Shown piece after piece: positions 5,775-27,887 of a stretch of DNA of 64,000 nt. Made by a program: the position numbers and the translations under genes. Source of the DNA: an uncultured delta proteobacterium (lineage in GTDB: Bacteria; Myxococcota_A; Polyangia; Polyangiales; Polyangiaceae); contig CAWJCS010000004.1 of the NCBI GenBank assembly GCA_963841435.1, forward strand, positions 64,001 through 128,000. The letters run 5' to 3'. Below the pieces are notes generated by a model that saw nothing but the letters and a program-made list of their open reading frames with translations, searched no databases and was not told where the DNA came from. Each line of letters opens with the position of its first letter. Position 1 is the stretch's first letter.

Positions 5775-8042
5775 TCAGCCCACGCGGGCGCTGAACTCGA
5801 CCGGGCCGAAGCGAACGATCGAGCCCGTGGGGATCGGCGTCCAGACGCCCGGCGAGAGGCGCGCACCGTTGACCAACGTGCCGTTGTTGCTGTTCTCGTC
5901 GCGGACGAGGAGCTGGCCGTTGTCGAGGCGCACCGTGGCGTGAACGCTGGAGACGCGCGGCTCGTTGAGCACGATGGCGCATTTTTCCGTGTCCCGGCCG
6001 GCGCGCATCTCCTGGCCGGAGAGGATGGTGAACAGTCCGGCCGAGCCCTGGAGCGTGGCGCTCGAGCCGCCGTACGGGCTCGGGGGCGCGTCCTGGGGAG
6101 GAGGCGTCGCGACGCCGAGCGCCGCCGCCTGGCCCGGGGCCCCGTACAAGAACTCGGGGCTCGGAGGCGTGCCGGGTGCTGCTCCGTAGCCGCCACCACC
6201 TGGAGGAGGACCACCGCCGTACCCACCGGGCGGGTTGCCGCCGCCGTAACCGCCGGCAGGACCGCCGCCGCCGTAACCACCGGGCGCACCCCCATAGCCA
6301 CCGGGCGCACCCCCGTAGCCGCCGGGGGGCCCGTAGCCCGGACCCGCCGGGGCCGGCGGCGTCGGACCACCGCGCTTCTTGCCGCCGCCGCGGAGCAGCA
6401 CGACGAGCAAGAGCGCGACGACGACGACGCCGAAGGCGCCACCGAGGATCAGCATGAGGTTGAGCGGCGGCGTCGTGCCCTTGAGCTGGATGATGCTGTC
6501 GGCGGTGACGCCGCTCGTGCGGTGCGCGCGGTTGTCGTAGAGCACGAGCCGCACTACGGCTTGCTCGCCGGAGCCGTGCAGGATCTTGTCCTTGTCGGGC
6601 GCCATGAGCTCCACGTACGTGTCGCTCGCCTCGATCGCCGTGCCCTTCATGCCCATCGCGATGAGCTGCTGCTGGGTCCGCTTGGCTTGCTCGATGTTCG
6701 CGCCCGCGAGCGCTGTCGGTAGCGGCTGCCCCGCCGGCAGGAAGTAGACTTCGGCGCGAGACTTGTCGCCGCCCCAGCAGAAATCGCCGTACACCCGGAA
6801 GCGCCCGCCGGGGTAAACGCCCTCCCGCTTGGCGATTTCCTGCGAATACTGCAGGTTCACGTCGAGCGGCCAGGTCGTCGGGTCGATGCCGATCGGCACG
6901 TCCTTGAACGTGTTGTCGCCGAGCAGCGGCGTGCTCATGTCCTTGAAGAACAGCTTGAAGCTCTGCGTCACGCTCGGGGCGACGCAGGAGACGCGCCACC
7001 TCACGAGGCTCATCTTCGAGAAGCGCTGCCGCACGGTGCCGACGATCGCGGGCGCGCGACTACCCTGACCCTCTTGCACCACCGTGAAGAACCCGCCGAT
7101 GTCGGGGTTCGCGAGGTTCTGCATGAACTCGAGTGAGTTCTGGCGAAACTCGTCGAGCGTCCGGAGCGGGAAGTAGACGCTGATGACGGGGACGGGCGAC
7201 TTCGGCAGCGCCGTGTTGTCCTCGGGGAAGCGGCCGTTGGCGAGATACTGCTGGAGCTGCAAGGCGCCCGGGCCCGTCGTCGCTGGGTCGGCACCGCCGA
7301 AACCGCTCGAGAGCACGACCATCGCCTGGTGCAACGGCACCTTCACGTCCTCGCCGACATTGCCGAGCGAGCCGAAGCCGTCCGTCGCCGCCGACTTGAT
7401 GATCGTGAGCAGCGAGCGGTTGCGGCCGCTGTTCGGGTAGGTCTCCGTGGCGGCGGAGATGAACGCGGCGCCGCTCTTCTGGGCGCCCGCCATCCACTTC
7501 GAGTCGCGCACGACCTGGCGGTCGTTGAAGAACATCAGGTCGACGATGTCGCTCGGTCCGAGGCTCGCTATGAACTGCTGGGCGACGGCCTTCGCGTCCT
7601 CGAACGATTTGGACATGCGCCGGTCGGCGTCGATGAGGATGAGCCAGGCGGTGCCCACACCGGGCTGCTGCTGGCTATCGCCCCACGACGCGTGGCTCAC
7701 GTACTTGGCGGGGAAATCGCTGCCTTCGACCGCCACGGTGAAGATGGCGTTGGACGCCGGGAAAGGGAACGGCGTGTAAAGGGCGAACGGACGCTCGAGC
7801 GCCTGGCTCATGCAGTCGAGCTGGGCGTTGCCCGTCATGCGGGCGCAGGTCGTGGTCGCGTCGCTGATGCGCTTGCTCTGTGCGACCTCGACCACCGTGG
7901 TGAGCACGGGGTTGCCGTTCTGCGACGCGGCGCGCGGGTCGATGCGCAGGATGCGCGCCTGCGGCGCCGCCAGAGCAGCGCCCGCGAGGAGCGAAGCCGC
8001 GAGCCCGGCCGCCAGCGCCTGCAATAGTCGGGAAGCCCGCAT
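5775..8042 (-). CDS. Membrane protein: signal peptide, VWA-like ectodomain, TM helix, Gly/Pro/Tyr linker, C-terminal FHA
   Basis: WLILIDADRRM (VWA-like), TM ILGGAFGVVVVALLLVVLL, FHA GRDTEKC..EPRVSSVHA..DENSNNGT. Confidence 0.85.
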   Translation of the reverse strand: MRASRLLQALAAGLAASLLAGAALAAPQARILRIDPRAASQNGNPVLTTVVEVAQSKRISDATTTCARMTGNAQLDCMSQALERPFALYTPFPFPASNAIFTVAVEGSDFPAKYVSHASWGDSQQQPGVGTAWLILIDADRRMSKSFEDAKAVAQQFIASLGPSDIVDLMFFNDRQVVRDSKWMAGAQKSGAAFISAATETYPNSGRNRSLLTIIKSAATDGFGSLGNVGEDVKVPLHQAMVVLSSGFGGADPATTGPGALQLQQYLANGRFPEDNTALPKSPVPVISVYFPLRTLDEFRQNSLEFMQNLANPDIGGFFTVVQEGQGSRAPAIVGTVRQRFSKMSLVRWRVSCVAPSVTQSFKLFFKDMSTPLLGDNTFKDVPIGIDPTTWPLDVNLQYSQEIAKREGVYPGGRFRVYGDFCWGGDKSRAEVYFLPAGQPLPTALAGANIEQAKRTQQQLIAMGMKGTAIEASDTYVELMAPDKDKILHGSGEQAVVRLVLYDNRAHRTSGVTADSIIQLKGTTPPLNLMLILGGAFGVVVVALLLVVLLRGGGKKRGGPTPPAPAGPGYGPPGGYGGAPGGYGGAPGGYGGGGPAGGYGGGNPPGGYGGGPPPGGGGYGAAPGTPPSPEFLYGAPGQAAALGVATPPPQDAPPSPYGGSSATLQGSAGLFTILSGQEMRAGRDTEKCAIVLNEPRVSSVHATVRLDNGQLLVRDENSNNGTLVNGARLSPGVWTPIPTGSIVRFGPVEFSARVG

Positions 8043-8998
8043 CAGACGATCTTCACGATGGCGACGTAGCCACCGAACCGCACAACGTCGCCGTCCTTCA
8101 GCTCGTGCTTCTTGCCCCGCTCCAGCATCAAATCACCCACGAACGTTCCGTTCGTGCTGCCGATGTCCTCGACCTTGATGCGGCCGGGGCGCGCCGCAGC
8201 CCAAAGGACGGCGTGGCGCGACGACGCCGTGCCGTGCTCGAGCTCGATCTGGGCCCCCGACCCCGCGCCCTTGCGCCCGACGAGCGTCTGACCCTGAAGG
8301 ATCGGGTACGACACGCCGAGCTCGCTACCCTCGTAGCTCACGAGGAAACCCGCGAGCACGCGCGGCGCGTTCGGGTCAACCTGTTCGGGATCGAGCGACG
8401 GCTGTTGGCGCTCCTGAGGGCGGGGCGAGGGAGGCGGTGCTACCGGCACCATCGGCGGCTGCTGCGGACGCTGCGCGCCGTAGTCGTTCGGCATGGCGGG
8501 CGGCGGACTCGTGCCCGGATACTGATTTTGTCCCCACGGGGGCGCGGCCGGCGGGGGCTGCTGGGGAGCGCCGGGATAGGGCGTGCCGTAGCCGCCCTGA
8601 TATCCCGGCTGCGGAGCTTCCTGGCCGCCTGGGTTCGGTCCCACCGTGGCGCCGAACGGGTTCGGTCCCTCGGGCGGTCCGTAGCCTGGTTGCGGGCTCG
8701 GCGCGTAGCCGCCCTGTGGCTGATAACCACCTGGCGCCGGCCGCGGCTGTCCCCACCCCGCGTTCGGATCGCCCTGAGGCGGTGGTTGCTGGGGCGGCGA
8801 GCCATAGCCCCAGTTCGGCTGGCCCTGTGGCGCTGGCTGAGGCGAGCCGTAGCCGCCCGGATTCTGGGGAGCCGGCGCCGGCTGCGGGTTGGCAGCTGGC
8901 TGGGATTGTGACGGCGTTTTCTGAACGGGCGCCCCGCACGACAAGCAAAACTTGTTCGTGGGTTGGTTCTGGGCGCCGCAGCGGGCGCAAACAATCAT
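8042..8998 (-). CDS. Zinc-ribbon / Pro-Gln-rich / FHA domain protein
   Basis: CARC..FCLSCG; C-terminal VGRK..SSRHA..DIGSTNGT; 1-bp overlap with next gene. Confidence 0.88.
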   Translation of the reverse strand: MIVCARCGAQNQPTNKFCLSCGAPVQKTPSQSQPAANPQPAPAPQNPGGYGSPQPAPQGQPNWGYGSPPQQPPPQGDPNAGWGQPRPAPGGYQPQGGYAPSPQPGYGPPEGPNPFGATVGPNPGGQEAPQPGYQGGYGTPYPGAPQQPPPAAPPWGQNQYPGTSPPPAMPNDYGAQRPQQPPMVPVAPPPSPRPQERQQPSLDPEQVDPNAPRVLAGFLVSYEGSELGVSYPILQGQTLVGRKGAGSGAQIELEHGTASSRHAVLWAAARPGRIKVEDIGSTNGTFVGDLMLERGKKHELKDGDVVRFGGYVAIVKIV

Positions 8999-9082
8999 GC
9001 GAAAACTCCGGTCCGCGAGCATTGCCCCAGGCCGCGTCCGGGGCAAGCGCGAGGCAGCATAGCCTCCCCACCCCCTCCGAGC

Positions 9083-9442
9083 CTAGCGGTCCTTCTCGTC
9101 CTGGACGCGGGCGGCTTTGCCGGAGAGGTTCCTGAGGTAAAACAAGCGGCCACGGCGTACGACGCCGCGTGAGACGACCTCGATGCGCTCCAGACGAGGA
9201 GAATGGAGCATGAAAATGCGCTCGACGCCCACGCTGAAGCTCACCTTGCGGACGGTGATCGTGGACCTCACGCCCGCCCGGTGGCGCTTGATGACCACGC
9301 CACGGAAGACCTGCACGCGGAGCTTGTCTCCCTCGACGATCTTGTAGTGAACGGCGATCGTGTCGCCGACTCTGAAGTCCGGGAGATCCTTACGGATTCC
9401 AGCAGCTTCGAGGGCCTGGATCTTGGAAAGCGTGGCGAACAT
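9083..9442 (-). CDS. rplS: 50S ribosomal protein L19
   Basis: [40 protein letters not shown]. Confidence 0.97.
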
Positions 9443-9591
9443 CGAGGGGGGCCTCTCTTGGAGAGCGGGCGCGGGATTATGCACCCTCGAGGGGGCCCGT
9501 CAAGCGGATCGGCCTCGGATTTCCCCGCAAGAGCCGCTTTCACGCCCGCTCGGCGGTTGTCTCCGTCGCTGGACCATGGGATGGGCGCTCC

Positions 9592-11887
9592 ATGATCATT
9601 TCTGCTCTGTCTCGTCCACTGCTGCTCTCGGCCGCCGTGCTTGGAGCGGGGTGTATGGCCGGGCCCCAGGCGGGCGCGCCCCCGGCCGGCGCGCCGCAGA
9701 CGATGTCGGCGGTCACGGTGGACCCAGGCCCGCCCACGAGCGCCGCCGGGACACCGTACCAGTGGAAGAACGTCACGATCCTCGGCGGTGGGTTCGTGAC
9801 GGGCGTCGTGTTCAGCCCGGTGACGGCCGGAGTCGTCTACGCGCGCACCGACGTGGGCGGCGCGTACCGCTACGACCCGAAGGCCGAGGTCTGGATCCCC
9901 ATCACCGATCATTTCGATCGGAAGTCGAACTTCATGGGCATCGAGAGCATCGCGGCCGATCCGGTCAACGACGAGAAGGTCTACGCGGCCGTCGGGACGT
10001 ACACGCAATCGTGGGCGGGCAACGGCGCCATCCTGCGCTCCAAGGATCGAGGCAACACCTGGGAGCTGACGGACATGCCCTTCAAGATGGGCGCCAACGA
10101 GAACGGCCGCTCCAACGGCGAACGCCTCGCCATCGATCCCAACCAGCCGGCCATCCTCTATTTCGGCTCGCGCAAAAATGGCCTCTGGCGGAGCGAGGAT
10201 TCGGCCGTCACGTGGAAGAAAGTGGAGAGCTTTCCCATGCAGGAAGACGCAGAGGGCCTCGGCATTCCCTTCGTCGTGTTCGATGCCAAGCGAGGCGCGA
10301 AGGGCAAGCCCACGCCCGTGATCTACGCCGGCGTGTCGCGCACCGACGTGTCGCTGTATCGGAGCACCGACGCCGGCAAGACCTGGAAGCCCGTGCCCAA
10401 GCAGCCGGCGGGGATGATGCCCGCGCACGCCGAGCTCGACGGCGCGGGGATGCTCTACCTTTCCTACGGCAACCTGCCGGGCCCGAGCGACGTGACGGAC
10501 GGCGCCGTCTACAAGCTCGACCCGCGAAGCGGAGCGTTCACCGACATCACGCCACAGAAGCCGAAGAAGGACGACTCGGACAGGTTCGGCTACGCGGGGC
10601 TGTCCGTCAACACCGCTCACCCGGGCACGGTCGTGGTCACGACGATCGACCGCTGGACGAAGGGTGACGAGGCGTATAGGACGACCGACGGCGGCAAGAC
10701 GTGGAAGCCGATGTTCGCCAAGGCCACGTGGGACATCGCCGGAGCGAAGTATCTGTACTGGCATCGCGACAAGCTCGGCGTGCCGCACTGGCTGGGGGAC
10801 ATCGACATCGATCCGTTCAACCCCGCGCACGTCATGTTCGTCACCGGTGCGGGCCTTTGGCGCACGACCGACGCGACCGAGGTCGACAGCGACAAACCGG
10901 TGCACTTTCGCTTCGCGCCCCAGGGGCTCGAGGAAACCGTCGTCAGCGTGCTCGCGAGCCCGCCCGCAGGCCCGCCGCTTTTCAGCGGCATGGGTGACAT
11001 CTGCGGCTTCCGCCACGACGACCTCGCCACGGCGCCGAAGGACGGCATGTACTCGGACCCCGTTTGCAACGGCACGACGGGCCTCGACTTCGCGGAGCTA
11101 GCGCCGGATCTCGTCGTGCGCGTCGGAACGGTGTGGGGCGAAGGCAAGCACGGCGCGTACTCCGAGGACGGCGGTGTGAGCTGGAAAGCGTTCGGCAGCG
11201 AGCCCAAAAACGGCAGCACGGGGGGCAACGTCGGCATCAGCGCCGACGGCAAGACCGTGGTGTGGGTGATCAAGAAGGAAGTGCCCGTGGTCTCGAGCGA
11301 TTGGGGCCGCACGTGGACAGCGATCGAGGGCCTGCCCGTGCCCGTCGACGCGCCCGACTGGGTCCCCGTGAATCTGCGCATCGCTGCTGATCGCGTGAAC
11401 CCGCAAAAGTTCTACGTATACGACAGCGCCGAGGGACGCATCTACACGAGCAGCGACGGCGCACGCCATTTCCAGGCGACCGCGAGCAACATGAGCGGCC
11501 TGCCCGACTACGCTCGCTCGTCCGGCTCGATCCGCGCCGTGCCCGGCCTCGAGGGGCACGTGTGGCTCAGCACCGGCAAGGCGGTCTTTCGCTCGACCGA
11601 TTCTGGCGCGAGCTTCACCGAGCTCTCGAACGTCCAGGAAAGCCACGCCATCGGCTTCGGCAAGGCAGGCCCGCGGCGCGCCCATCCGGCGGCCTATCTC
11701 GTCGGCACCGTGAGTGACGTTCTACGGATTCTTCCGCTCCGATGACGCGGGCGGGACGTGGGTGCGCATCAACGACAATCGCCATCAGTTCGGGTTCGCG
11801 GGCGTCATCACGGGTGACGCGCGCGTGTTCGGACGCGTGTACGTCGGCACGGGCGGTCGCGGCATCCTGGTCGGTACGCCGCGCTGA
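9592..11887 (+). CDS. GH74 xyloglucanase-like lipoprotein (apparent frameshift near 11720)
   Basis: GGGFVTG, YARTDVGGAYR, GRSNGERL, GLEET, MGDICGF, BNR repeats. The +1 frame gives the conserved end RSDDAG..WVRIND..GRVYVGTGGRGI to TGA 11887. Confidence 0.9.
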
Positions 11888-19138: not shown

Positions 19139-19693
19139 TCACGCCGGCGGCCGCAGGAGCTCGACGCCCGTTGCCACGAAGCGCACCTCTTCGGCGCTGC
19201 CGTCGGGTGCCTTTTCGCCGAAGCGGGCGCCCTCGGACTCGAGGTGCTCGACGAGCTTGGGTGCGACGTGCCGCACGGTCAGCGTGCCTTCGAGCCGGGC
19301 GCTCGAGCCGGCCGAGTCCGTCGGCACGAAGAAGCCGTAGTCCTTGAACGTGACGCGGCAGCTCGGCGAGCTCGGATCGGCGCTCGCCGCGAGCTCCATC
19401 CAGCAGCCGCGGCGCGAGCAGGCGCGGCGCACGTGCCCTGAAAGTCCCATGGATTGGTCCGCGAAGTCCGCCGGGCGCGCGAGCACGCTCGCGAGCGACG
19501 CCGGCGGCGCGGAGCCGAGCGGTACGCCGAATCGCTTCCAGTCGCCGGCGGCACGAGCTTTTTCCGGCGTGGCGCCGGATCGCCCGTTCGGAGCGGACAC
19601 GTCGGCGGCACCCGCTCGCTCGCTCTTCTCGACCGATCCCGAACGGCAGCTCACGACGAGCACGGCGACCGCGAACGCGCGTACCGTCTTCAT
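19139..19693 (-). CDS. DUF4920-like lipoprotein
   Basis: Lipobox VVSC; CSRRGCWM, VTFKDYGFFVPTD, FVATGV. Confidence 0.85.
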   Translation of the reverse strand: MKTVRAFAVAVLVVSCRSGSVEKSERAGAADVSAPNGRSGATPEKARAAGDWKRFGVPLGSAPPASLASVLARPADFADQSMGLSGHVRRACSRRGCWMELAASADPSSPSCRVTFKDYGFFVPTDSAGSSARLEGTLTVRHVAPKLVEHLESEGARFGEKAPDGSAEEVRFVATGVELLRPPA

Positions 19694-21195
19694 GTGCCGA
19701 GCGCTCCCCGCACGCGGTCCGTCAGGCGCTCGCGGGCGCCCTTGATGGTGTCCCGCGCGAGGAGCACGGGATAGCTCGCTTCACCGTCGGGCATCAGCAC
19801 CTCGAAGCGCAGCGGGCCCTCCGGGGCTACGTCGTTGTCGTTCCAGCGCCCGGCGCCGTGAAAGCAGAGTATCTCACCGACGTACGCGCCGGCGAGCACG
19901 GCGGCGCGCCGTTCCGCAACCTCGGTGGAGGGCGCCCCAGGCACGGCGACGCCAGGCGCGACCAAGGCGAGGAAGCGCTCGATGGCCTCCAGGCTTTCGA
20001 GCGAGCGATCGAGAGGCAAATGCACCGAGCGCTCCGCCCACAGGCCGATGGCCGAGCTCCTGAGCGTGCGTCCGAGCTCCCCCAGGCGCGAAAGCTCCGG
20101 CCAGGTCGCGGGATCCCAGGGCGTCGGGGGATCGATCGGCCTGAGGTGAGGGGCCTCGGGTGGTTCGGCTGCGGGGTGCGGGCTGGGCCCGGCGTCCAGA
20201 CGCAAGGAACGGCCCGCACGCAACGCCTGCTCGACGTGGTCGAGCGGTTCGTAGCCCTCGTTGCCGTAGGAGACGATCAGCGTCGTGGGCTCGGCGACGC
20301 GACCTTGCCAGGTGCCGCCGCGCGCGAGTCGGACACACTCGCCAGCGTAGCACGCGAGCAGCATGGCGAGCGCGTACGGCGGTGTGCGAAGCTCCGGCGA
20401 GGCGACGAGGGCGAGCACGGCGTCGAGGCGTTCCAGGCTCTTCAGCGACAAGTCGTACGGTGCGAAGTGCCACGCCGCGGGCGCGCGCGTCAAAAAGGCC
20501 GCTGCTTCCGTCGCGAGCCTTGGCGCCTCGGGCATGTCGTGCACGAGCAACGTGTCGAGGCGATCGGCGGCGAGGCGCTCGAGCGTGGCGAGCGCCGCCT
20601 CGAGGTTCCCGTTCGCGAGCTCGAGCTCGAGCGGGTCCCACGTGGTGGTACCGGCCGGTCGCGGGCTCCGTAGCGCGATTTTCGGCGACGGCGGGACGCT
20701 CTCGACGGGCGCGGGCGCGGGCTCGGTGGGTACCTCGGAGCGCGGCGGCTCGAGCCGTCCGAGATTGAGGGGCGCGAACGGCGGCCCGAGACGCGCCGGT
20801 GGTGGCACGGACGGGGTCTTGAGCACGAATTGTGGAAACGTTCGCGCGCTCGACGGCGGGGGAGCCGACGGCGGCTCGTTGGGCCTCGACGGCGGGGGCG
20901 CGGGCTCGGTGGCGGGGCGCGGTGGCGGTGGCGGGCTCGTGACGCGCAAGAGCGCGCGCGCCTCCGGAAAGTCTGGGCACTGGGCGAGGACATCCTCGAT
21001 GCGCTCGCGGACCGCCGCACGGTCGAGACGCCCGCGCAAGAACAGGAGGCGCGTCGTCAGATAGGTGAGCGCGGGGCCGAACGCACCCGAGGGTCCGAGC
21101 GCCGCGAGCCGCTGCTGGGCTTCCTCGAAACGCCCAGCGTCGAGGCAACCCTCGACGGCCCGAAGCCTGTCATCGTCGAGCGGGCCTCCGGACAT
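19690..21195 (-). CDS. Hypothetical protein: TPR-like N-terminus, Pro-rich linker, two related C-terminal domains
   Basis: Repeated pattern (Y/L)D.SL.SLE...LALVA...Y.GE...G.W; ATGA overlap with the DUF4920 gene. Confidence 0.7.
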   Translation of the reverse strand: MSGGPLDDDRLRAVEGCLDAGRFEEAQQRLAALGPSGAFGPALTYLTTRLLFLRGRLDRAAVRERIEDVLAQCPDFPEARALLRVTSPPPPPRPATEPAPPPSRPNEPPSAPPPSSARTFPQFVLKTPSVPPPARLGPPFAPLNLGRLEPPRSEVPTEPAPAPVESVPPSPKIALRSPRPAGTTTWDPLELELANGNLEAALATLERLAADRLDTLLVHDMPEAPRLATEAAAFLTRAPAAWHFAPYDLSLKSLERLDAVLALVASPELRTPPYALAMLLACYAGECVRLARGGTWQGRVAEPTTLIVSYGNEGYEPLDHVEQALRAGRSLRLDAGPSPHPAAEPPEAPHLRPIDPPTPWDPATWPELSRLGELGRTLRSSAIGLWAERSVHLPLDRSLESLEAIERFLALVAPGVAVPGAPSTEVAERRAAVLAGAYVGEILCFHGAGRWNDNDVAPEGPLRFEVLMPDGEASYPVLLARDTIKGARERLTDRVRGALGT

Positions 21196-21312
21196 GCCAA
21201 CGGACAGGGTCGCGCGACGGCGACGGGGACGCAATTCGCGCGTACTCTGGGCCGAGTTTCCGCGCAGGATCGTCCGGTCGCGCCCGGCCCGCCGGAGGGG
21301 GGGCGCGGCCGC

Positions 21313-23403
21313 TCAGGGGGCCTTCGGTTCGAGCGATTTCGCGCAGCGAAAGCCGATGCCGTAGCTGAGCGCGCTCGGGGCCTGCGCGTAGCGGAACGAG
21401 GGCCGGAGCCAGCTCGCGTAGCTGCCGTTGAACGCTCCGCCGCGGATCACGCGCCGCTCGCCTGTCGCGGGGCCGGTCGGATTCTTTTCGGCATCCGGGC
21501 CGTAGGGGGCGTACCAGTCGGCGACCCACTCCCACACGTTGCCGACGACGTCATAGGGACCGAAGCGCGAGCGGCCCGCGGGGAATTTCCCGACGGGAGC
21601 CGTGCCGGCATAGCCATCGTCGTCGGGGTAGAGCGCGGCGAAGGGAGCACCGTGCCGCTTGCCCCACGTGACGCATTCGCCGCCGCACGCGTTCAGGTGC
21701 TTGGCCGTCGGGGCGTCGTCACCCCACGGGTAGACGCGACCGTCGGGCCCGCGTGTCGCGTACTCCCATTCGGCTTCGGTCGGGAGGCGTTTGCCCTGCG
21801 CCTCGCAGTAGATGCTCGCCATCTCGTGGCTGACGCAGTTGATCGGGTGGTCGGAAAGCTCGGGCTTTCCGAACGTGCAAAACCCCGCGTAAAGCCGCTT
21901 GTCCTTGGGCGTGATCTCCGGCCAGTCGAGCTCGTTGGTCACGCGCTTGCACTTGCCGATGTCGGAGCAAGCTTTGTATTTCCCGGCCGTCGTCTCGTAA
22001 AGGTCGATGCAGTAGGCGTTGAGCGTGACGTTGTGGCTCGGCTTCTCGTTGTCGAGCGCATCCTTCGCGTCGGAGCCCTGGAAGAACTGACCTGCCTTGA
22101 TTGTCGCCATCTCTTCGGGGCAGGTCGGCTCGTCGGCCACGCTCTTCGCGGGGGCAGGTGCCGGCACGCTCGAAAACGACGGGAACGGGGCCGCCGGGCG
22201 CACGCTCTCGTCGCTCGCGCCGCGCCGCGCGATGAAGATGCCCCCGACGCCCAGCATGCCGACCACGACGGCGCCGAGGATGACGAGCCCGGCCTTGCCC
22301 GCGGAGGGGCGCGCGACGTCGCCGCTCGTCGCGCTCGAGCCGTCGGTCGTCGGGGAAGTGCGGGCACCGAGCGCCCCTGGCGCGAGCTCGGTGGGCGCCG
22401 TGCTCGGACGCACCCGGCCCCCCGCCGCGGCCACGCCGCTCGGCACGGCGGCACCGGGGAGCGCCGGGAGCCCCTGCAGCGCCTGACCGAGCGCCGCCCA
22501 GAATTCGCCGGCCCGCGGATAGCGGTCCTCCGGCTTCACCGAGAGGGCCTTTTCGAAGACTGCTTCCACGGCGTCGGGCAGCGCCACGCCGAGAGCGCGC
22601 GGTGTCGGCCGCTTCACGGGGTTGCCCGAAGAGAAGCCGAGCTGCACGAGATCGTCGCCCTCGAGCGCCACGTGCCCGCACAGCATCTCGACCGCCACGA
22701 GCGCGAGCGCGAACACGTCCGTCCAGGGGCCCGTGGCGCCATAGCTGCGGCTGAACTGTTCGGGCGCGCCGTACTGCGGCGTGAACGACGTGACGCCCAT
22801 GCCGGTCTTCGCGAGCGCGGCTTTGAGCTGCGTGTTGTCGCTCATCATCTTGGCGACGCCGAAGTCGAGCACCTTGACGACGGCCTTGCCGTCGCGCGGA
22901 TCGCCCAGCACGAACAGATTCGGCGGCTTGATGTCGCGATGCGCGATGCCGCGACCGTGCGCCACGTCGAGCGCGGCGGCCGCCTGCCCGAGCAGGGCGT
23001 AGACCTCCGAGAGGGTGAACGTGGTGCGCCCCGCCAGTCGCTCGCTCTCGATGAGCTCGTCGAGAGCGAGACCGTCGAGCCACTCGAGCACCATGTACGG
23101 CATCCACTGCCCGTCGGGTGACGTGTACGTCCCGACGTCGCGCGCCTGCACGATGGCCGCGGTCTGGCTCGAAAGCTCGGTGAGCAGCGCCCCTTCCTGG
23201 ATGAACGCCTGCTGGAACAGATCGCGCTGATCGGCGGGGGCCGAGGAGAGCCCGCTGAAGAACTTGATGGCGACCGGCTTTTGCCAGATCGTGTGCATCG
23301 CCCGGTAGACGACGGCAAAGCCTCCCTCGCCCACGAGGCGCTCGACCCGATACTTCTCGGCGACGATGCGGCCGTTCAGGCCCAACGGATCGTGATCGCT
23401 CAT
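21313..23403 (-). CDS. Membrane Ser/Thr protein kinase with extracytoplasmic FGE-sulfatase (SUMF1)-like domain
   Basis: GEGGFAVV, VAIK, HRDIKPPN, DFGVAK, APEQ, TM helix; RLPTEAEWEYA, YPWG, GNVWEW, RGGAF, GFRCA. Confidence 0.95.
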   Translation of the reverse strand: MSDHDPLGLNGRIVAEKYRVERLVGEGGFAVVYRAMHTIWQKPVAIKFFSGLSSAPADQRDLFQQAFIQEGALLTELSSQTAAIVQARDVGTYTSPDGQWMPYMVLEWLDGLALDELIESERLAGRTTFTLSEVYALLGQAAAALDVAHGRGIAHRDIKPPNLFVLGDPRDGKAVVKVLDFGVAKMMSDNTQLKAALAKTGMGVTSFTPQYGAPEQFSRSYGATGPWTDVFALALVAVEMLCGHVALEGDDLVQLGFSSGNPVKRPTPRALGVALPDAVEAVFEKALSVKPEDRYPRAGEFWAALGQALQGLPALPGAAVPSGVAAAGGRVRPSTAPTELAPGALGARTSPTTDGSSATSGDVARPSAGKAGLVILGAVVVGMLGVGGIFIARRGASDESVRPAAPFPSFSSVPAPAPAKSVADEPTCPEEMATIKAGQFFQGSDAKDALDNEKPSHNVTLNAYCIDLYETTAGKYKACSDIGKCKRVTNELDWPEITPKDKRLYAGFCTFGKPELSDHPINCVSHEMASIYCEAQGKRLPTEAEWEYATRGPDGRVYPWGDDAPTAKHLNACGGECVTWGKRHGAPFAALYPDDDGYAGTAPVGKFPAGRSRFGPYDVVGNVWEWVADWYAPYGPDAEKNPTGPATGERRVIRGGAFNGSYASWLRPSFRYAQAPSALSYGIGFRCAKSLEPKAP

Positions 23404-24269
23404 CGGGGACGCGGATCGGGGTTCGAACCTGCCATGCTCCTCCCAACGCTCTCCCGGGACAAGGGGTCTACGCCCAAAAGCGCTCCGCGCTCCGAAAGGT
23501 CCGCGAGCAGCCTGCTCGTCCCATCGAGCACGGATGGGCTCGTCGGGACCCCAAAGCTCTCGCAGGCGAGCACGACGGCCTGCCCGAGCGCGGCCCCAGC
23601 GAGCAAGGCGTCGAGCATGGTGGCGGCCAGGGGCGAAAGCTCGAGGTAGCGCACGTCGTCGTTCGCGTCGCGGTAGACGGCGAGTGCCGTCGGCTCGCGC
23701 ACGGGCTCGCTCCGGTCCGCCTCGTTCTCGGGAAGGCGATGCACGGCGTGTTCGTAGCGCGCGACGACGAGCGACGGCGAGAAAACGAGGCAGGACTCGG
23801 GAGCGAGCTCGAGGCTCGCGGTTGCGCGCGCGTCGGGGCTCGAGGCGACGACGATCGACAGGGCCTCGTGGCGCGCGAGGTCGAGGGCCCAGGCGGGGAC
23901 CCGCGGATCGCGCGGCCAGAGCGGGGCGCAGAAGTCGAGCAGCTCGGTCGTCACGTCGCGCAGGTAGTGCGTGCGGGGGCCGCGCTCCGTGAGGAAGCGT
24001 GCGAAGTACTCGTCGAACAGCGGTCCGAGGCGGGCCATGGTTCGCGGGATCGCGAGCTCGAGCGCGCTCCGAAGCGTGCCGCGCGCGAGCGTGCGGTAGA
24101 CCAGCAACCGCGGGAAATCGCGGCGTATCGCCGTCGCGTCGCGCCCGCTGATGCCGTGGCGCAAGAGGAACGGGTCGAGATCGCTCGGTGCGAGCGCCGG
24201 CCCGAACACGAGCTCCGCCATGGCGTCCTCAAGCGTTGCTTGCACGGCGCTCCTGCCCGAGGGCGGCAT
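23400..24269 (-). CDS. DUF2063-type MNIO partner protein (HvfC/BufC-like); start could be 24221
   Basis: RLLVYR..L...PRT...G..FD.YF..F, DLARHE, LAVYRD...VRYLELSP; directly downstream of DUF692. Confidence 0.8.
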   Translation of the reverse strand: MPPSGRSAVQATLEDAMAELVFGPALAPSDLDPFLLRHGISGRDATAIRRDFPRLLVYRTLARGTLRSALELAIPRTMARLGPLFDEYFARFLTERGPRTHYLRDVTTELLDFCAPLWPRDPRVPAWALDLARHEALSIVVASSPDARATASLELAPESCLVFSPSLVVARYEHAVHRLPENEADRSEPVREPTALAVYRDANDDVRYLELSPLAATMLDALLAGAALGQAVVLACESFGVPTSPSVLDGTSRLLADLSERGALLGVDPLSRESVGRSMAGSNPDPRPR

Positions 24270-25104
24270 CGACCACGCTGCGCACCACGCCGACCTCGGC
24301 GACCAGCTCGTCGAGCGAGGGGACGAGGTTGTCGCGCTCGAGCAACACCGGGACGGGTCCAGTGCGCGCGAGACTGAACGAAAGGAGCTCGAGAACGCTG
24401 GGGATCACGGGGGCGCCGTGGTTGTCGATGAGCAGTCCATCGGGTCGAACGAGGTGCCCCGCGACGTGAATCTCGATCACGCGCTCGAGCGGTAGGGCCT
24501 CGATGAAAGCGAGCGGGTCGAAATCGTGATTGATGGCGTTCACGTAGACGTTGTTCACGTCGAGCAAGAGCCCCGCCTGCGTGCGCTCGAGAATGCCGGC
24601 GATGAGCTCGCTCTCGGCGAGCTCGGGCTCGCCCGGGTGCGCGTAGTAGGTGACGTTTTCTAGCGCCATCGGGCGGCCGAGCCGCTCCGAGAGCTCGTCG
24701 ATGCGGTCGGCGATGCGAGGCACGGCGTCGCGTGCGAAACGGAGCGGCAAGAGCTCGTGAAAGCTCCGTGGCCCCGCGCTCGTGACGGCGAGGTGATCGG
24801 AGTGCCAGGGCGTCTCGAGGCGATCGAGCTCGTCACGCAAGGCCGCCACGAACTCGACGTCCGGCTCGCGCTCGGCGCCGAGCGACAAGGTGAGCCCATG
24901 CGTCACGATCGGGTAGCGGTCGCGCACGCGTCCGAGCGCGGCGGGGTAGTAACCGCCCCGCCGCATGTAGTTTTCGGGGGACACCTCGAAGAAGTCGATG
25001 TCGAGCGTGGGCCCGTCGATCACCTCTTCGAGAAACTCCCAGCGCAGCCCGAGCCCGATTCCGCGCGGCGCGCGGCGTAGCTCGGGACCGGGGATTGTCG
25101 TCAA
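24229..25104 (-). CDS. DUF692 family multinuclear non-heme iron-dependent oxidase (MNIO)
   Basis: GIGLGLR, FEVSPENY, HGLTLSLG, SDHL, LENV, LLDVNNVY, EIHVAGH, DNHG, LLERD. Confidence 0.95.
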   Translation of the reverse strand: MTTIPGPELRRAPRGIGLGLRWEFLEEVIDGPTLDIDFFEVSPENYMRRGGYYPAALGRVRDRYPIVTHGLTLSLGAEREPDVEFVAALRDELDRLETPWHSDHLAVTSAGPRSFHELLPLRFARDAVPRIADRIDELSERLGRPMALENVTYYAHPGEPELAESELIAGILERTQAGLLLDVNNVYVNAINHDFDPLAFIEALPLERVIEIHVAGHLVRPDGLLIDNHGAPVIPSVLELLSFSLARTGPVPVLLERDNLVPSLDELVAEVGVVRSVVDAALGQERRASNA

Positions 25105-25119
25105 TGGACGTCGACGCGG

Positions 25120-25476
25120 CTAGCCGCAGGTGCCCGGACCGCAACCGGCCTTGGCGCCGGCCGCCTTCTTCTTGGCTGCGGGCTTCGGGGCCGCGGGTGC
25201 CGCTTCCGTTTTCGCCGGGCTCGTGGCCGCGGGCGCTTCGGCGGCGGCCGCTGCTGGCGCTGCGGCCGGGGTTGCCGCGGGGGCTTCGGCAGCGGCCGGT
25301 GCATCCATCGCCGGGGCGGCCTCGGCGGCCGCTTCCGGTGCGGGCGCTGCGGCTGGGACCTCGGTCGCCTCGACGGGGCTCGACGCCGGCTCGGCGGGAG
25401 CGGCTGCGCCGCCGCAGGCGGTCGAGCCGAGCGCTGCAAGCGCACTCGCAAAGGCATACTGACTGAGCTTGTTCAT
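25120..25476 (-). CDS. Putative MNIO RiPP precursor: lipoprotein signal, Ala/Pro/Glu stalk, C-terminal CGPGTCG core
   Basis: AAGGAG RBS; MNKLSQYAFASALAALGSTAC; other Cys only at 112 and 117; ends 15 bp before DUF692. Confidence 0.85.
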   Translation of the reverse strand: MNKLSQYAFASALAALGSTACGGAAAPAEPASSPVEATEVPAAAPAPEAAAEAAPAMDAPAAAEAPAATPAAAPAAAAAEAPAATSPAKTEAAPAAPKPAAKKKAAGAKAGCGPGTCG

Positions 25477-25548
25477 GTTCGGAATGCTCCTTGGTCGGTT
25501 TGAGCTCGGGTGGCCCGAGCATACTCAAAGGAAGGACGTTTGAGGGGG

Positions 25549-25574
25549 TACGGCGCCCCGGCGGTCGCGGTTTC
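25549..25574 (-). promoter_or_regulatory. ECF-sigma-type promoter GAAACC-N16-CGTA upstream of the precursor
   Basis: Minus strand reads GAAACC gcgaccgccggggcgc CGTA, matching the AAC/CGT ECF pattern with a 16-nt spacer. Confidence 0.55.
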
Positions 25575-25593
25575 GGTCGGTGTCGTGGCGCAG

Positions 25594-26373
25594 CTATTGC
25601 TTCCTCAGTCTGAGCTCCACGGAAACGCGCGCTTCGCGGGCGATTTTCCTGCTTTCCAGGGCTCGGTCACGGACCAGGGGCGCCCCGTGCCCGTCGCGCG
25701 CGCGGATGTCGTGCGTCGCAAACGACACCACGAGCGGGGTCCGCGTGTGCAGCACGAGCTCTGAGGCCGGAGGCGCTCCGGAGGTCGGACTCGGCGTCAC
25801 CTCGAGCTCGACGCTCGCGGGAGCTCGCATGCCGTGCAGCGAAAGTGTCCCGCGTGCGAGCCACCCGTCCCGGTGGGTCGCTTCGAGCCCGAGAAGCTCG
25901 AAGGTCGCGACGCGCGCGCTCGCGCGAGCCGCCGCGGGAGCTTCGGCGCCGAGGCCGAGCCAGTCGAGCGCTGCTTTCGTGAGCTCGGGATCCACATCGC
26001 CGTCACCCGACAGAAGCTCGAGGGACGTGAGGTCCGCGTCGATCTTGCCGCGCGCCGACGATGGATCGTTCGGATCGAAATCGACGGAGCCGCTCGCTCG
26101 GGTCACCCTCCCCGTGGGGGAGCCCTTGCGGAGAGGCAGCTCGAGCTCGACCTTGGCCCATACGACCGCGTAGCGCGCTCGCTCCCCGGCGGGGAGGCTC
26201 CGCGCACTCGCGGGAGCGGAGGGTGGCGTCGCGGGCCAGGGCTCGGTGCGCTCCGGCTGAGGCGGCTCCCGCCGGCAGGCGACGACGAGCGCAACCAGCG
26301 CGGCCGCGGCCGTCACGGCGCGAGCGGAGCGCTTCTGCGGTCGGCCGCGCGCGGTTCGCCGATCCTTTCGCAT
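25594..26373 (-). CDS. YceI-like lipoprotein
   Basis: Lipobox VVAC; GSVDFDPNDPSSARGKIDADLTSL, ARGTLSLHG, beta-strand pattern. Confidence 0.75.
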   Translation of the reverse strand: MRKDRRTARGRPQKRSARAVTAAAALVALVVACRREPPQPERTEPWPATPPSAPASARSLPAGERARYAVVWAKVELELPLRKGSPTGRVTRASGSVDFDPNDPSSARGKIDADLTSLELLSGDGDVDPELTKAALDWLGLGAEAPAAARASARVATFELLGLEATHRDGWLARGTLSLHGMRAPASVELEVTPSPTSGAPPASELVLHTRTPLVVSFATHDIRARDGHGAPLVRDRALESRKIAREARVSVELRLRKQ

Positions 26374-27887
26374 CAGTGCCAGACTCCGATGGCGAGGCCC
26401 CAGCCGAGGTAGGCGCGTGCGACGTCCAGGGAGCCGGTCAAGCGGAACCAATTTCCTTCCGGGAACGTGCCGAAGACGTCCCAGGGCAAAAGCTTCTGAT
26501 CGATGCCGAGCGTCGCATGCGCGCGTCCGCCGTCCGCATTGTCCGGAAAGCGGGTGGGCTCGAAATAGATGCCACCGCGCAGCTTCGTCCAGCGCAAAAT
26601 CGGCTCGAGCTCCACGGCGAGGCGGGGCGAGAGGCTGAGGTGCCTCCCGGAGCGTTGCGCCTTGCCGTCCAAGAACCCCTCGATGCCGATGCCGCCGTCG
26701 ACGTTGCCCGTGAGCACGAGCGAGCTCGTGATGAGCACGTACCGGCGAGGCAGGGCCTCGAACGTGGCACGGACCTGGCGGTCCACGTCGTCCTTGGCTT
26801 CTTCGACCTCTTCCTCGTCCCTTTCCGCTGCGAGCGCTTCTTCGCGTGCGAGCTCTTGCTCGAGCGCCGTCACGTCGGCGCCGCCGCGGCGTGCGGCCGC
26901 GATGCGTTGCCTGTCCCTTCGCGCGCGCTCGCGCGCCCCGTAGTCGACCCGGCGCCGCACGCGATCGACCACGTCGTCGGGATTGACCCAGCGCGGGTTG
27001 ATGGGGCGCGGGCCGAGCTGCAGCGCGGCACCGAAGTTCAGATCCCACGGCACGGTGACGCGATCGGGTAGATACCGGTCGTCGCTGGGGTCGGCGTTGT
27101 CCGTGTTGAGCTGTTGCCTTCCGCTTTTCGGCGTTTCGGCGTTGACGGCCGTGCGAAACGCAGCGCCGACGCGCACGTGCTCCCAGTTGGGTCGCCAAAC
27201 GAAGCCCGTTTCGAAACCCGCCCCCGTCGTACTGAGCAGATTCGTGCCCTCTTGGAGCACGGTGCTGCGCGTCGTGACGGTGAAGGTGGTCACGCGCATC
27301 CCGAGCCCGATCGCGAGCTGCCCGTCCCCGACTCCGTAGGCGCCGAGCACGTGGTTTTGCACGATCTGCCCGGCAAGGTCGCGCTGCCCGTCGTTCTCGA
27401 GCTCGCTTTGGCCGCGAAAGCTGTACTGCTGGAGATCGGCTGTCGCGGCGAAGCCGAAGTGGTCGATCTGGACGTGCACGGCGCCACCCAGAAAAACGTA
27501 CGGTTGCTTGCCCGTGGGCAGGCACGTCTCGCGCCCCGAGTTGAAGTAGTCGTAGTGCTCGAGCCCGCTCGGGAACGTCAGGCTGCCGCCGAGCTCCTGA
27601 TCGGCGCTCGAAAACGACGTTGGGGCGCGCACCGCGGGCGAGGCGGGGTTTTGGGTGTCGCCGTCGACGCCTTCGGCGATGGCCACGAAGGCGCCGGCGA
27701 GGCCGATCACGCGAGTGCTCGCGAACACCGGGCCTTGGTAGAGGTCGAGCGCGTAGTCGTTGGTGCGAAGGTCGGGCACCGTCGGAGGCCACGCCGCGCT
27801 GCCGTCGCTGCATTGTGCCTGCGCCCGCCCCGTGACGAACGCCGCCGCCGCGGCCGCGGCAAAAAGCCAGGGTCCGGCGGGGCGCAT
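26373..27887 (-). CDS. Putative outer-membrane beta-barrel (FadL/PorV-like N-terminus)
   Basis: Signal peptide ending AQA; TRVIGLAGAFVAIAEG..NPA; alternating strands; ends GWGLAIGVWH. Confidence 0.65.
   Translation of the reverse strand: MRPAGPWLFAAAAAAAFVTGRAQAQCSDGSAAWPPTVPDLRTNDYALDLYQGPVFASTRVIGLAGAFVAIAEGVDGDTQNPASPAVRAPTSFSSADQELGGSLTFPSGLEHYDYFNSGRETCLPTGKQPYVFLGGAVHVQIDHFGFAATADLQQYSFRGQSELENDGQRDLAGQIVQNHVLGAYGVGDGQLAIGLGMRVTTFTVTTRSTVLQEGTNLLSTTGAGFETGFVWRPNWEHVRVGAAFRTAVNAETPKSGRQQLNTDNADPSDDRYLPDRVTVPWDLNFGAALQLGPRPINPRWVNPDDVVDRVRRRVDYGARERARRDRQRIAAARRGGADVTALEQELAREEALAAERDEEEVEEAKDDVDRQVRATFEALPRRYVLITSSLVLTGNVDGGIGIEGFLDGKAQRSGRHLSLSPRLAVELEPILRWTKLRGGIYFEPTRFPDNADGGRAHATLGIDQKLLPWDVFGTFPEGNWFRLTGSLDVARAYLGWGLAIGVWH

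Follow-up and report, generated by a model that had tools for sequence, protein, structure and literature searches.

A putative captophorin-type RiPP operon with a lipoprotein-like precursor in a soil myxobacterium

5-Thiooxazoles are installed by a class of paired proteins, an oxidative enzyme that depends on multinuclear non-heme iron (MNIO, DUF692) and a PME1 partner, and the class has been named captophorins (10.1101/2025.11.18.689057). The subject here is a gene cluster in one stretch of DNA, the window, which comprises 64,000 nucleotides of an uncultured Polyangiaceae genome (assembly GCA_963841435.1, contig CAWJCS010000004.1, positions 64,001 to 128,000). The host is a soil myxobacterium of the Polyangia. 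Three genes lie together on the minus strand, in the order precursor, MNIO, partner, and form a real operon. It probably directs formation of a peptide made by ribosomes and modified after translation (RiPP) of the captophorin type (HvfABC/bufferin-like), a lipoprotein that would hold one Cu(I) site. The system would then join a very large class that was defined only recently, with systems described from 2024 to 2026; it would extend the lipidated thiooxazole peptides to the Myxococcota, and to a minimal design in which a stalk carries a single copper site.

Described systems and the layout of the locus

One close comparison is HvfABC(X) of nontypeable Haemophilus influenzae. The precursor HvfA carries three AEGKCGEGKCG units (10.64898/2026.06.05.730506). 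HvfB and HvfC together take 4 Da from each of six cysteines (Cys); a precursor truncated to one unit still becomes 8 Da lighter; recognition does not require the signal peptide; and the data fit about one Cu(I) for every two modifications (PMC11252979). Later work changed the assignment of the modification from oxazolone/thioamide to 5-thiooxazole (10.1101/2025.11.18.689057; 10.64898/2026.06.05.730506).

A second group of systems uses precursors with lipoprotein signals. These are modified in the cytoplasm, then exported and triacylated, as ‘DAG-RiPPs’; the route has been shown with two precursors, DybA and the oxazolin-type NedA, the latter losing 12 Da over three EGKCG motifs in triacylated lipo-NedABC (PMC13056109). 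The same report contains ‘Cluster X’, a set of uncharacterised lipoprotein-signal precursors with a conserved CxxxxC. Among the bufferins, about 16% of the Buf2 group are predicted lipoproteins; Antoine et al. also list a ‘CxxxxC’ precursor family of 76 proteins, and find the order precursor-MNIO-partner to be strict in bufferin clusters (PMC12452194). The initial annotation of the window, made from its letters and reading frames, had called the architecture of this product unrecognised among characterised MNIO products. That claim has to be given up: lipo-NedABC, the DAG-RiPPs, the captophorins, the lipoprotein Buf2 bufferins and Cluster X are already in print.

The precursor gene of the window (25120..25476, minus strand; 118 aa) follows a Shine-Dalgarno sequence, AAGGAG (25487..25492, minus), with its ATG 10 nt downstream; it is identified by the open reading frame (ORF), an alignment of orthologues and relatives in databases. 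The MNIO gene (24229..25104, minus; 291 aa) starts 15 nt past the precursor stop, and Pfam and NCBIfam models (PF05114 among them) assign its product to the HvfB/BufB group. The partner gene (23400..24269, minus; 289 aa) encodes DUF2063 plus NGO1945_C, a RiPP recognition element (RRE), by the same two collections, and makes the product a PME1-type protein; its true start is probably Met17 at 24221, 8 nt past the MNIO stop. A scan of 21000-26600 gave no promoter-like sites and five terminator-like sites, which is not above shuffled sequence (mean 2.5); none of the five is on the minus strand inside the operon. No RNA data set containing 23300-25700 is listed; one soil-metagenome DNA run contains 0.29 of the words sampled from that interval.

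The locus resembles HvfABC(X) in gene order, in a precursor with a Sec-type signal, in a C-G-x-G-x-C-G unit where each Cys is followed by Gly, and in its nearest solved enzyme, 3BWW, which belongs to the HvfABC group. HvfA, however, has three units, Lys before Cys and a signal for signal peptidase I (SPI), whereas the window precursor has one unit, no Lys before Cys and a lipoprotein-type signal; the window also has a stalk of about 90 Ala/Pro/Glu-rich residues, no DoxX was seen, and all three proteins score below the Hvf cut-offs. With lipo-NedABC of Neisseria dentiae it shares an MNIO-type precursor with a signal for Sec and the lipoprotein pathway. NedA, from a betaproteobacterium, bears three canonical EGKCG motifs, while the window precursor, from the Myxococcota, bears one degenerate unit on a long stalk and is predicted to be lipidated.

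Compared by description only, Cluster X and the CxxxxC family of Antoine et al. share with the window a signal peptide, CxxxxC, and an MNIO with DUF2063; the window clade may already lie within one of these sets. The CxxxxC clusters have DoxX and, in 54%, a Lactamase_B_2 gene (PMC12452194), neither of which was seen beside the window operon; no Lactamase_B_2 gene was found among the eight neighbouring ORFs scanned against Pfam. The locus has all three genomic features that define captophorins: an MNIO, a PME1 partner that combines DUF2063 with an RRE, and, directly upstream, a precursor that contains Cys. In the motif of the window clade, Cys is preceded by Gly, Ala or Ser and followed by Gly, which is no clean match to any of the three captophorin motif types. 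The lipoprotein Buf2 bufferins are likewise predicted membrane-anchored copper peptides of MNIOs. They differ in having a folded six-Cys domain, Cys-Lys motifs and MNIOs of the EWD-D or EWD-A kind, where the window peptide has only two Cys at its extreme C-terminus; neither a BufB equivalog nor a precursor of Buf1 or Buf2 type was found in the window operon.

The same genome (G000) has three further MNIO loci on other contigs, and one of their precursors has a stalk like that of the window precursor. L001 pairs a DoxX-like ORF, read by eye, with a Buf2-like secreted precursor; the L002 precursor is a lipoprotein whose Ala/Pro/Glu stalk ends in a Buf2-like Cys domain; the L003 precursor is a lipoprotein whose BufA2 score of 56 bits falls slightly short of the cut-off, 60. 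The pockets of these three enzymes read EWD-A, EWD-D and EWD-D beside Buf2-like precursors, in agreement with Gadgil et al. (10.1101/2025.11.18.689057). Three of the four MNIO precursors of this genome thus look lipid-anchored.

The precursor and its terminal motif

The window precursor has Cys at positions 21, 112 and 117 only. Its N-terminus reads MNKLSQYAFASALAALGSTAC|GG, which gives S-T-A-C-G-G around Cys21; signal peptide and lipobox S-T-A-C span residues 1-21 (25414..25476, minus), as indicated by conservation among orthologues and by a lipobox rule that the sequence passes; a signal of this kind on a precursor encoded beside a RiPP enzyme is the mark of DAG-RiPPs. Ala accounts for 49% of residues 22-104, Pro for 19% and Glu for 10%. 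The tail, PKPAAKKKAAGAKAGCGPGTCG, carries a net charge of +5 and includes the core motif C112-G-P-G-T-C117-G (25123..25143, minus), defined from ten orthologues and 37 relatives. These features agree with the initial annotation, which had described exactly this protein: a lipoprotein-type ORF of 118 aa with Cys21, a lipobox non-canonical at -3 (Ser), and a stalk with a basic patch and terminal GCGPGTCG.

G+C content at the three codon positions (0.76/0.76/0.77) cannot tell the frame of this ORF, because its codons are mostly GCN, CCN and GGN. On comparative grounds it is more than a chance frame: the lipobox Cys, the terminal Cys pair and the position are conserved across genera. In 151 genomes of the same order, the window's own included, an MNIO match at E ≤ 1e-40 was found in 125, a tally that counts the unpublished genome G123, from which no locus was read. 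Upstream ORFs were surveyed at the best 30 MNIO loci, own locus included: at 27 of them a same-strand ORF with C[GA]xGxC lies directly upstream. The upstream ORF of L013 encodes a lipoprotein with the variant CGGAGGC. The motif search gave no upstream precursor at L012 (=L055, G146), L020 (=L057, G149) or L058 (G092), which may have other precursor types or small ORFs that were not called; in G146 a second MNIO lies 2.8 kb from the first.

Both functional ends recur in the 27 motif-bearing precursors. A lipobox-like Cys follows a hydrophobic run, at residue 21-35, in 26; 24 pass a stricter, PROSITE-type lipobox rule coded for this analysis, the one on which the lipoprotein prediction for the window precursor is based. 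The L015 precursor has an SPI-type signal instead, and no lipobox. The last motif ends at most eight residues from the C-terminus in 26, and copies number one (15 precursors), two (eight), three (three) or five (one). An alignment of the ten closest precursors, 40-62% identical to that of the window, has M1, L13, L16, C21, G22, P34, E39, C112, G113, G115, T116 and C117 invariant. After the lipobox comes a block, SPVxAxEVPAA, with A37, V40 and A43 conserved in at least 90% of the ten; in the window it is SPVEATEVPAA (residues 33-43; 25348..25380, minus). Partner recognition and lipoprotein sorting are candidate roles that this block may have.

A profile of the orthologue alignment was run against a collection of 5.8 billion proteins, at E ≤ 0.001 among the 8000 candidates sharing most words with it. 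It gave 37 relatives, all 37 with the terminal motif and 32 passing the lipobox rule. Of their names, 35 are absent or ‘hypothetical’ and two are obviously spurious; one relative is labelled Polyangiaceae. Three (P0025, P0026, P0035) combine the ending CGPGTCG with a canonical L-A-A-C lipobox. A search of genome contigs for related loci gave three, in a Polyangiaceae metagenome-assembled genome (MAG) and two Myxococcales MAGs. The initial annotation had staked its reading on conservation of the C-terminal Cys pair beside orthologues, and the invariance of the pair in all ten of them, with the motif in all 37 relatives, bears this out.

The link of the motif to oxazolin is seen in cousins. Precursors from the same MNIO clade, with enzyme identity of 45-50%, end in EASCGEGSCG or EAKCGEGKCG, and some match the NCBIfam model NF050137, ‘KCGExKCG_twice’ (cut-off 19.5): L025 with 40.9 bits, L014 with 21.3, L028 with 21.1 and L015 with exactly 19.5. 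The motifs form a series, KCGEGKCG, SCGEGSCG, xCGAGTCG, GCGPGTCG. Because this series is continuous, the tip of the window precursor is, on motif comparison, a single degenerate copy of the AEGKCGEGKCG oxazolin unit. Gly follows both C112 and C117, and the Cys-Gly dyad is the one preferred by MNIO-PME1 enzymes (10.1101/2025.11.18.689057). The Pro of CGPGTC is not conserved, being Ala, Glu or Gln in relatives. The tip, C112-GPGT-C117, is also a CxxxxC motif beside an MNIO.

A separate feature marks one subfamily (L014, L016-L019, L021, L022, L025, L028, L031 and L034, from genomes of 3-5 Mb), in which the lipobox Cys is followed by a conserved KSDDGPE/D; L016 has KDD only. Acidic residues after the lipoprotein Cys are similar to the signal by which Bacteroidota lipoproteins are exported to the surface, and in Myxococcus a Lys at +2 retains lipoproteins in the inner membrane.

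The modifying enzymes and competing readings

The window MNIO matches PF05114 (MbnB_TglH_ChrH) with E 8.4e-86 and 287.9 bits (cut-off 25), over 261 of 263 profile positions. Its nearest solved structure is the Histophilus somni DUF692 protein 3BWW (E 4.5e-45), and the alignment retains the blocks HGL(S/T)LSLG, SDHL, EN, LDVNN, IH(I/V)AGH, D(T/N)HG and LLERD. The His, Asp and Glu residues of these blocks that we take to be the ligands, from the alignment, fit an intact metal site, as first annotated. NCBIfam models rank HvfB (267.3 bits) and BufB (259) far above ApyH, ChrH (35) and MbnB (30); a ChrH-type reaction was dropped on that score of 35 bits. The partner, first read as DUF2063-like, exceeds the Pfam cut-offs for both NGO1945_C (57.1 bits; cut-off 27) and DUF2063 (30.0; cut-off 27.2), and matches the solved structure 3DEE weakly (E 0.017).

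Gadgil et al. tie substrate choice to Arg15, Arg16 and Phe250 of FonB, the last next to the catalytic Asp249; in enzymes for Cys-Lys (Buf2-type) substrates, Asp replaces Phe250 (10.1101/2025.11.18.689057). By alignment, the 3BWW pocket has GLGYRR and LLERDF. Across 30 enzymes of the window clade, with positions equated to FonB numbering by way of the 3BWW alignment, the residue after ERD is Asn in 20, Gln in seven, and His, Gly and Thr in one each; Phe occurs in none. The second Arg is present in one; the others have Tyr (12), Trp (11), His (three) or another residue (three). The clade thus appears to be a distinct specificity subgroup within the HvfB/BufB cluster, matched to a Gly/Ala/Ser-Cys-Gly motif, and this pairing of pocket and motif is a natural test of the published rules for Cys choice.

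The most likely order of steps, following the precedents of HvfBC and lipo-NedABC, runs as follows. The precursor of 118 aa would be made in the cytoplasm, where a complex of MNIO and DUF2063/RRE partner would oxidise Cys112 and Cys117 to 5-thiooxazoles, with a loss of 4 Da per Cys. The N-terminal signal would take the modified peptide through Sec; Cys21 would be diacylglycerylated, signal peptidase II would cut before it, and the new N-terminus would be acylated. The mature product, triacylated and some 98 residues long, would combine an acidic Ala/Pro/Glu stalk and a Lys-rich patch with one thiooxazole pair, which would form a single high-affinity Cu(I) site holding copper at the membrane, on its periplasmic side. 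All the comparisons made here support the earlier reading of a tethered product of an HvfB/BufB-type MNIO and DUF2063 partner, with one two-Cys tip on a flexible stalk.

Several observations weigh against this account. The MNIO is below the equivalog cut-offs of its two best models (HvfB NF003818, 267.3 against 360; BufB, 259 against 310), and the same is true of the nine clade MNIOs scored, at 265-301 on HvfB against 360 and all below the BufB cut-off. The partner has 93.3 bits on HvfC NF050145, below the cut-off of 142. The precursor matched no Pfam or NCBIfam family, and gave nothing even at E up to 10 with the HvfA models NF050137 and NF050188 or with the BufA2 and DUF2282 models; its single unit without Lys-Cys places it outside the HvfA family. 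A Pfam scan of eight neighbouring ORFs showed no DoxX. The lipobox has Ser at position -3 in place of Leu, Val or Ile. Finally, the pocket of the window MNIO reads R-W and ERD-N, against RR and ERD-F in 3BWW and the Lys-Cys type; with a pocket that differs in this way, a different outcome at the two Cys is possible.

A second perspective therefore supposes the same operon with different chemistry: the CxxxxC pair might be cross-linked or made into a macrocycle, or one Cys alone modified, and the product need not be a copper ligand. ChrH and DybH do make macrocycles from a two-Cys motif, CPACGMG (PMC13056109), and the specificity positions of the clade are unlike those of both described groups (Phe in none of 30, RR in one). 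The scores of all nine clade MNIOs are under both the HvfB and the BufB cut-off. We consider this unlikely. The HvfB and BufB models give the window MNIO 267 and 259 bits, compared with 35 and 30 from ChrH and MbnB; the motif grades into KCGEGKCG in cousins without a break; and FonB variants in the pocket itself (R15A, R16A, F250A, F250D) still gave product with the absorbance of 5-thiooxazole near 305 nm (10.1101/2025.11.18.689057). A thiooxazole pair remains the favoured outcome at Cys112 and Cys117.

Two further alternatives leave the genes as they are and alter the fate of the peptide. The thiols could stay unmodified, a CxxxxC site for Cu(I), another metal or redox chemistry on a stalk, with the MNIO pair acting elsewhere or merely co-regulated. 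Two thiols four residues apart can bind Cu(I), and the copper site of formylglycine-generating enzyme (FGE) is itself a CxxxxC pair. Unmodified HvfA binds about two to three Cu in competition experiments, but it does not compete with bicinchoninic acid for Cu(I) (PMC11252979). A motif-bearing ORF directly upstream of the MNIO at 27 of 30 loci, and PME1 partners that are reported as almost always dedicated to the adjacent MNIO and precursor (10.1101/2025.11.18.689057), make such a bystander role quite improbable. The other alternative keeps the modification and dispenses with the anchor: signal peptidase I would cut, and release a soluble periplasmic or secreted peptide like HvfA. The unusual Ser at -3 would suit this, as does relative L015 with its SPI-type signal and no lipobox. 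Yet Cys21-Gly22 is invariant in ten of ten orthologues, the closest relatives with a CGPGTCG tip (P0025, P0026, P0035) have the canonical L-A-A-C, and a lipobox-like Cys is present in 26 of 27 locus precursors; a soluble product is accordingly very improbable, and a lipid-anchored one is preferred.

A linked kinase and the flanking genes

Downstream of the partner, with a 4-nt overlap of stop and start (ATGA), lies a gene for a protein of 696 aa (21313..23403, minus) that Pfam and alignments resolve into a Ser/Thr kinase and an FGE-sulfatase fold. The kinase domain occupies residues 18-250, with HRDIKPPN and DFG intact; a hydrophobic stretch is read as one transmembrane helix; residues 430-689 form the FGE-sulfatase domain (E 2.8e-53), read as periplasmic. 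The FGE fold binds Cys-peptides and copper in true FGEs. In alignment with human FGE structures, the segment GGSYMCHRSYCYRYR reads GGAF--NGSYASWLRPSFRY, and on this account both presumed copper-binding Cys are absent. A catalytic FGE acting on the CxP of CGPGTC was considered and dropped, since the protein lacks both FGE Cys and relatives vary at the Pro.

The tally of linkage covers 26 loci flanked by 3 kb or more of sequence (the window, L035-L051 and L052-L059), which are relatives and not independent samples; the flanks of 14 contain a kinase homologue. Within the family of the window it was found in 12 of the 15 genomes examined, a set that leaves out four with weaker MNIO matches, and not in G080, G122 or G146; in other families it was found in none of eight, and in named MAGs in two of three. 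The order precursor, MNIO, partner, kinase is that of the window, G150, G103, G138, G073, G093 and L049, and of G130 with a gap of 1.5 kb. The kinase is convergent with the partner in G098, and divergent from the precursor in G044. The host genome of 7.78 Mb gives 127 matches to Pkinase and 14 to FGE-sulfatase (with one protein matched twice); by these counts a kinase within a few kilobases is not rare by chance, whereas an FGE-type kinase is rare. Outside the family the three genes are flanked by housekeeping genes (thymidine phosphorylase, acyl-CoA dehydrogenase, rpoC), which places the kinase outside the minimal system.

In a fourth arrangement precursor and MNIO face an inverted partner that stands directly downstream of the kinase: L042 (G126), L043 (G034), L052 (G118) and L050 (a MAG). 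MNIO and partner are convergent there, with overlapping ends, and in L042 the stop of the kinase gene adjoins the start of the partner gene; for MNIO clusters, separate transcription of partner and enzyme is unusual. The kinase domains of these four have just 28-31% identity. Pfam scans of two of them found an adjacent FGE-domain ORF in G034 and no such domain in the G126 kinase; G118 has a tblastn match to the FGE part; L050 has no match, and no room for one. In L043 a kinase-PEGA ORF (7695-8987, minus) overlaps an FGE-domain ORF (8816-10309, minus) in a different frame, which may be one frameshifted gene or an assembly error.

Of all the parts of this account, just two, the pocket signature and the linkage of the kinase, were not found in the literature searched. 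For a link of kinase with DUF2063, or of kinase with FGE, in myxobacteria, that search gave nothing relevant, judged by titles and the beginnings of abstracts. The main text of Antoine et al. contains neither ‘kinase’ nor ‘YceI’; it does note fusions of Buf1, cytochrome c and FGE-sulfatase (PMC12452194).

One perspective on the linkage would make the tethered thiooxazole peptide the sensing end of a kinase signalling module, and not only a copper sponge. The periplasmic FGE-fold domain might read the metal-loaded or metal-free state of the tip, or copper that the tip hands over; the kinase would phosphorylate cytoplasmic targets that control the operon or an envelope stress response. The RiPP would then be a co-receptor for a eukaryote-like kinase. 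We regard the idea as doubtful. Complex prediction between kinase residues 420-696 (6-row alignment) and precursor residues 79-118 (10-row) gave an ipSAE of 0.00 in two runs without controls, a result that speaks neither way on binding. The link of kinase and partner across arrangements suggests that a Ser/Thr kinase may replace, in myxobacteria, the sigma/anti-sigma pairs of Buf1 clusters; regulation of captophorin-type clusters is otherwise little understood.

Directly upstream of the precursor lies a gene for a YceI-like lipoprotein (25594..26373, minus; PF04264, E 1.2e-6, 29.4 bits, cut-off 23.7). It is conserved within the family of the window, and tblastn places it beside the operon in 15 of the 25 loci with wide flanks. 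Upstream of it in turn is a gene for an outer-membrane-protein-like product of about 500 aa (26373 to about 27905, minus), which has no Pfam family even at E up to 1; by coordinates its stop overlaps the YceI-like start by 1 nt, and it is found in four of the 25 loci. Both genes recur beside the operon in the closest relatives.

Beyond the kinase gene come a Pro-rich protein of 514 aa with weak TPR signals (19690-21234, minus), conserved in the five closest relatives, and a DUF4920 protein of 184 aa (19139-19693, minus; E 2.5e-15) with a lipoprotein-like N-terminus and several Cys. The DUF4920 gene lies about 1.6 kb beyond the kinase gene and 4 kb beyond the partner; a search of the flanks of related loci gave no match to it at E ≤ 1e-5. 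At L046 (G124) an ORF with a weak Peptidase_M61 match (7550-8956, plus; E 1.5e-6) is divergent from the precursor operon.

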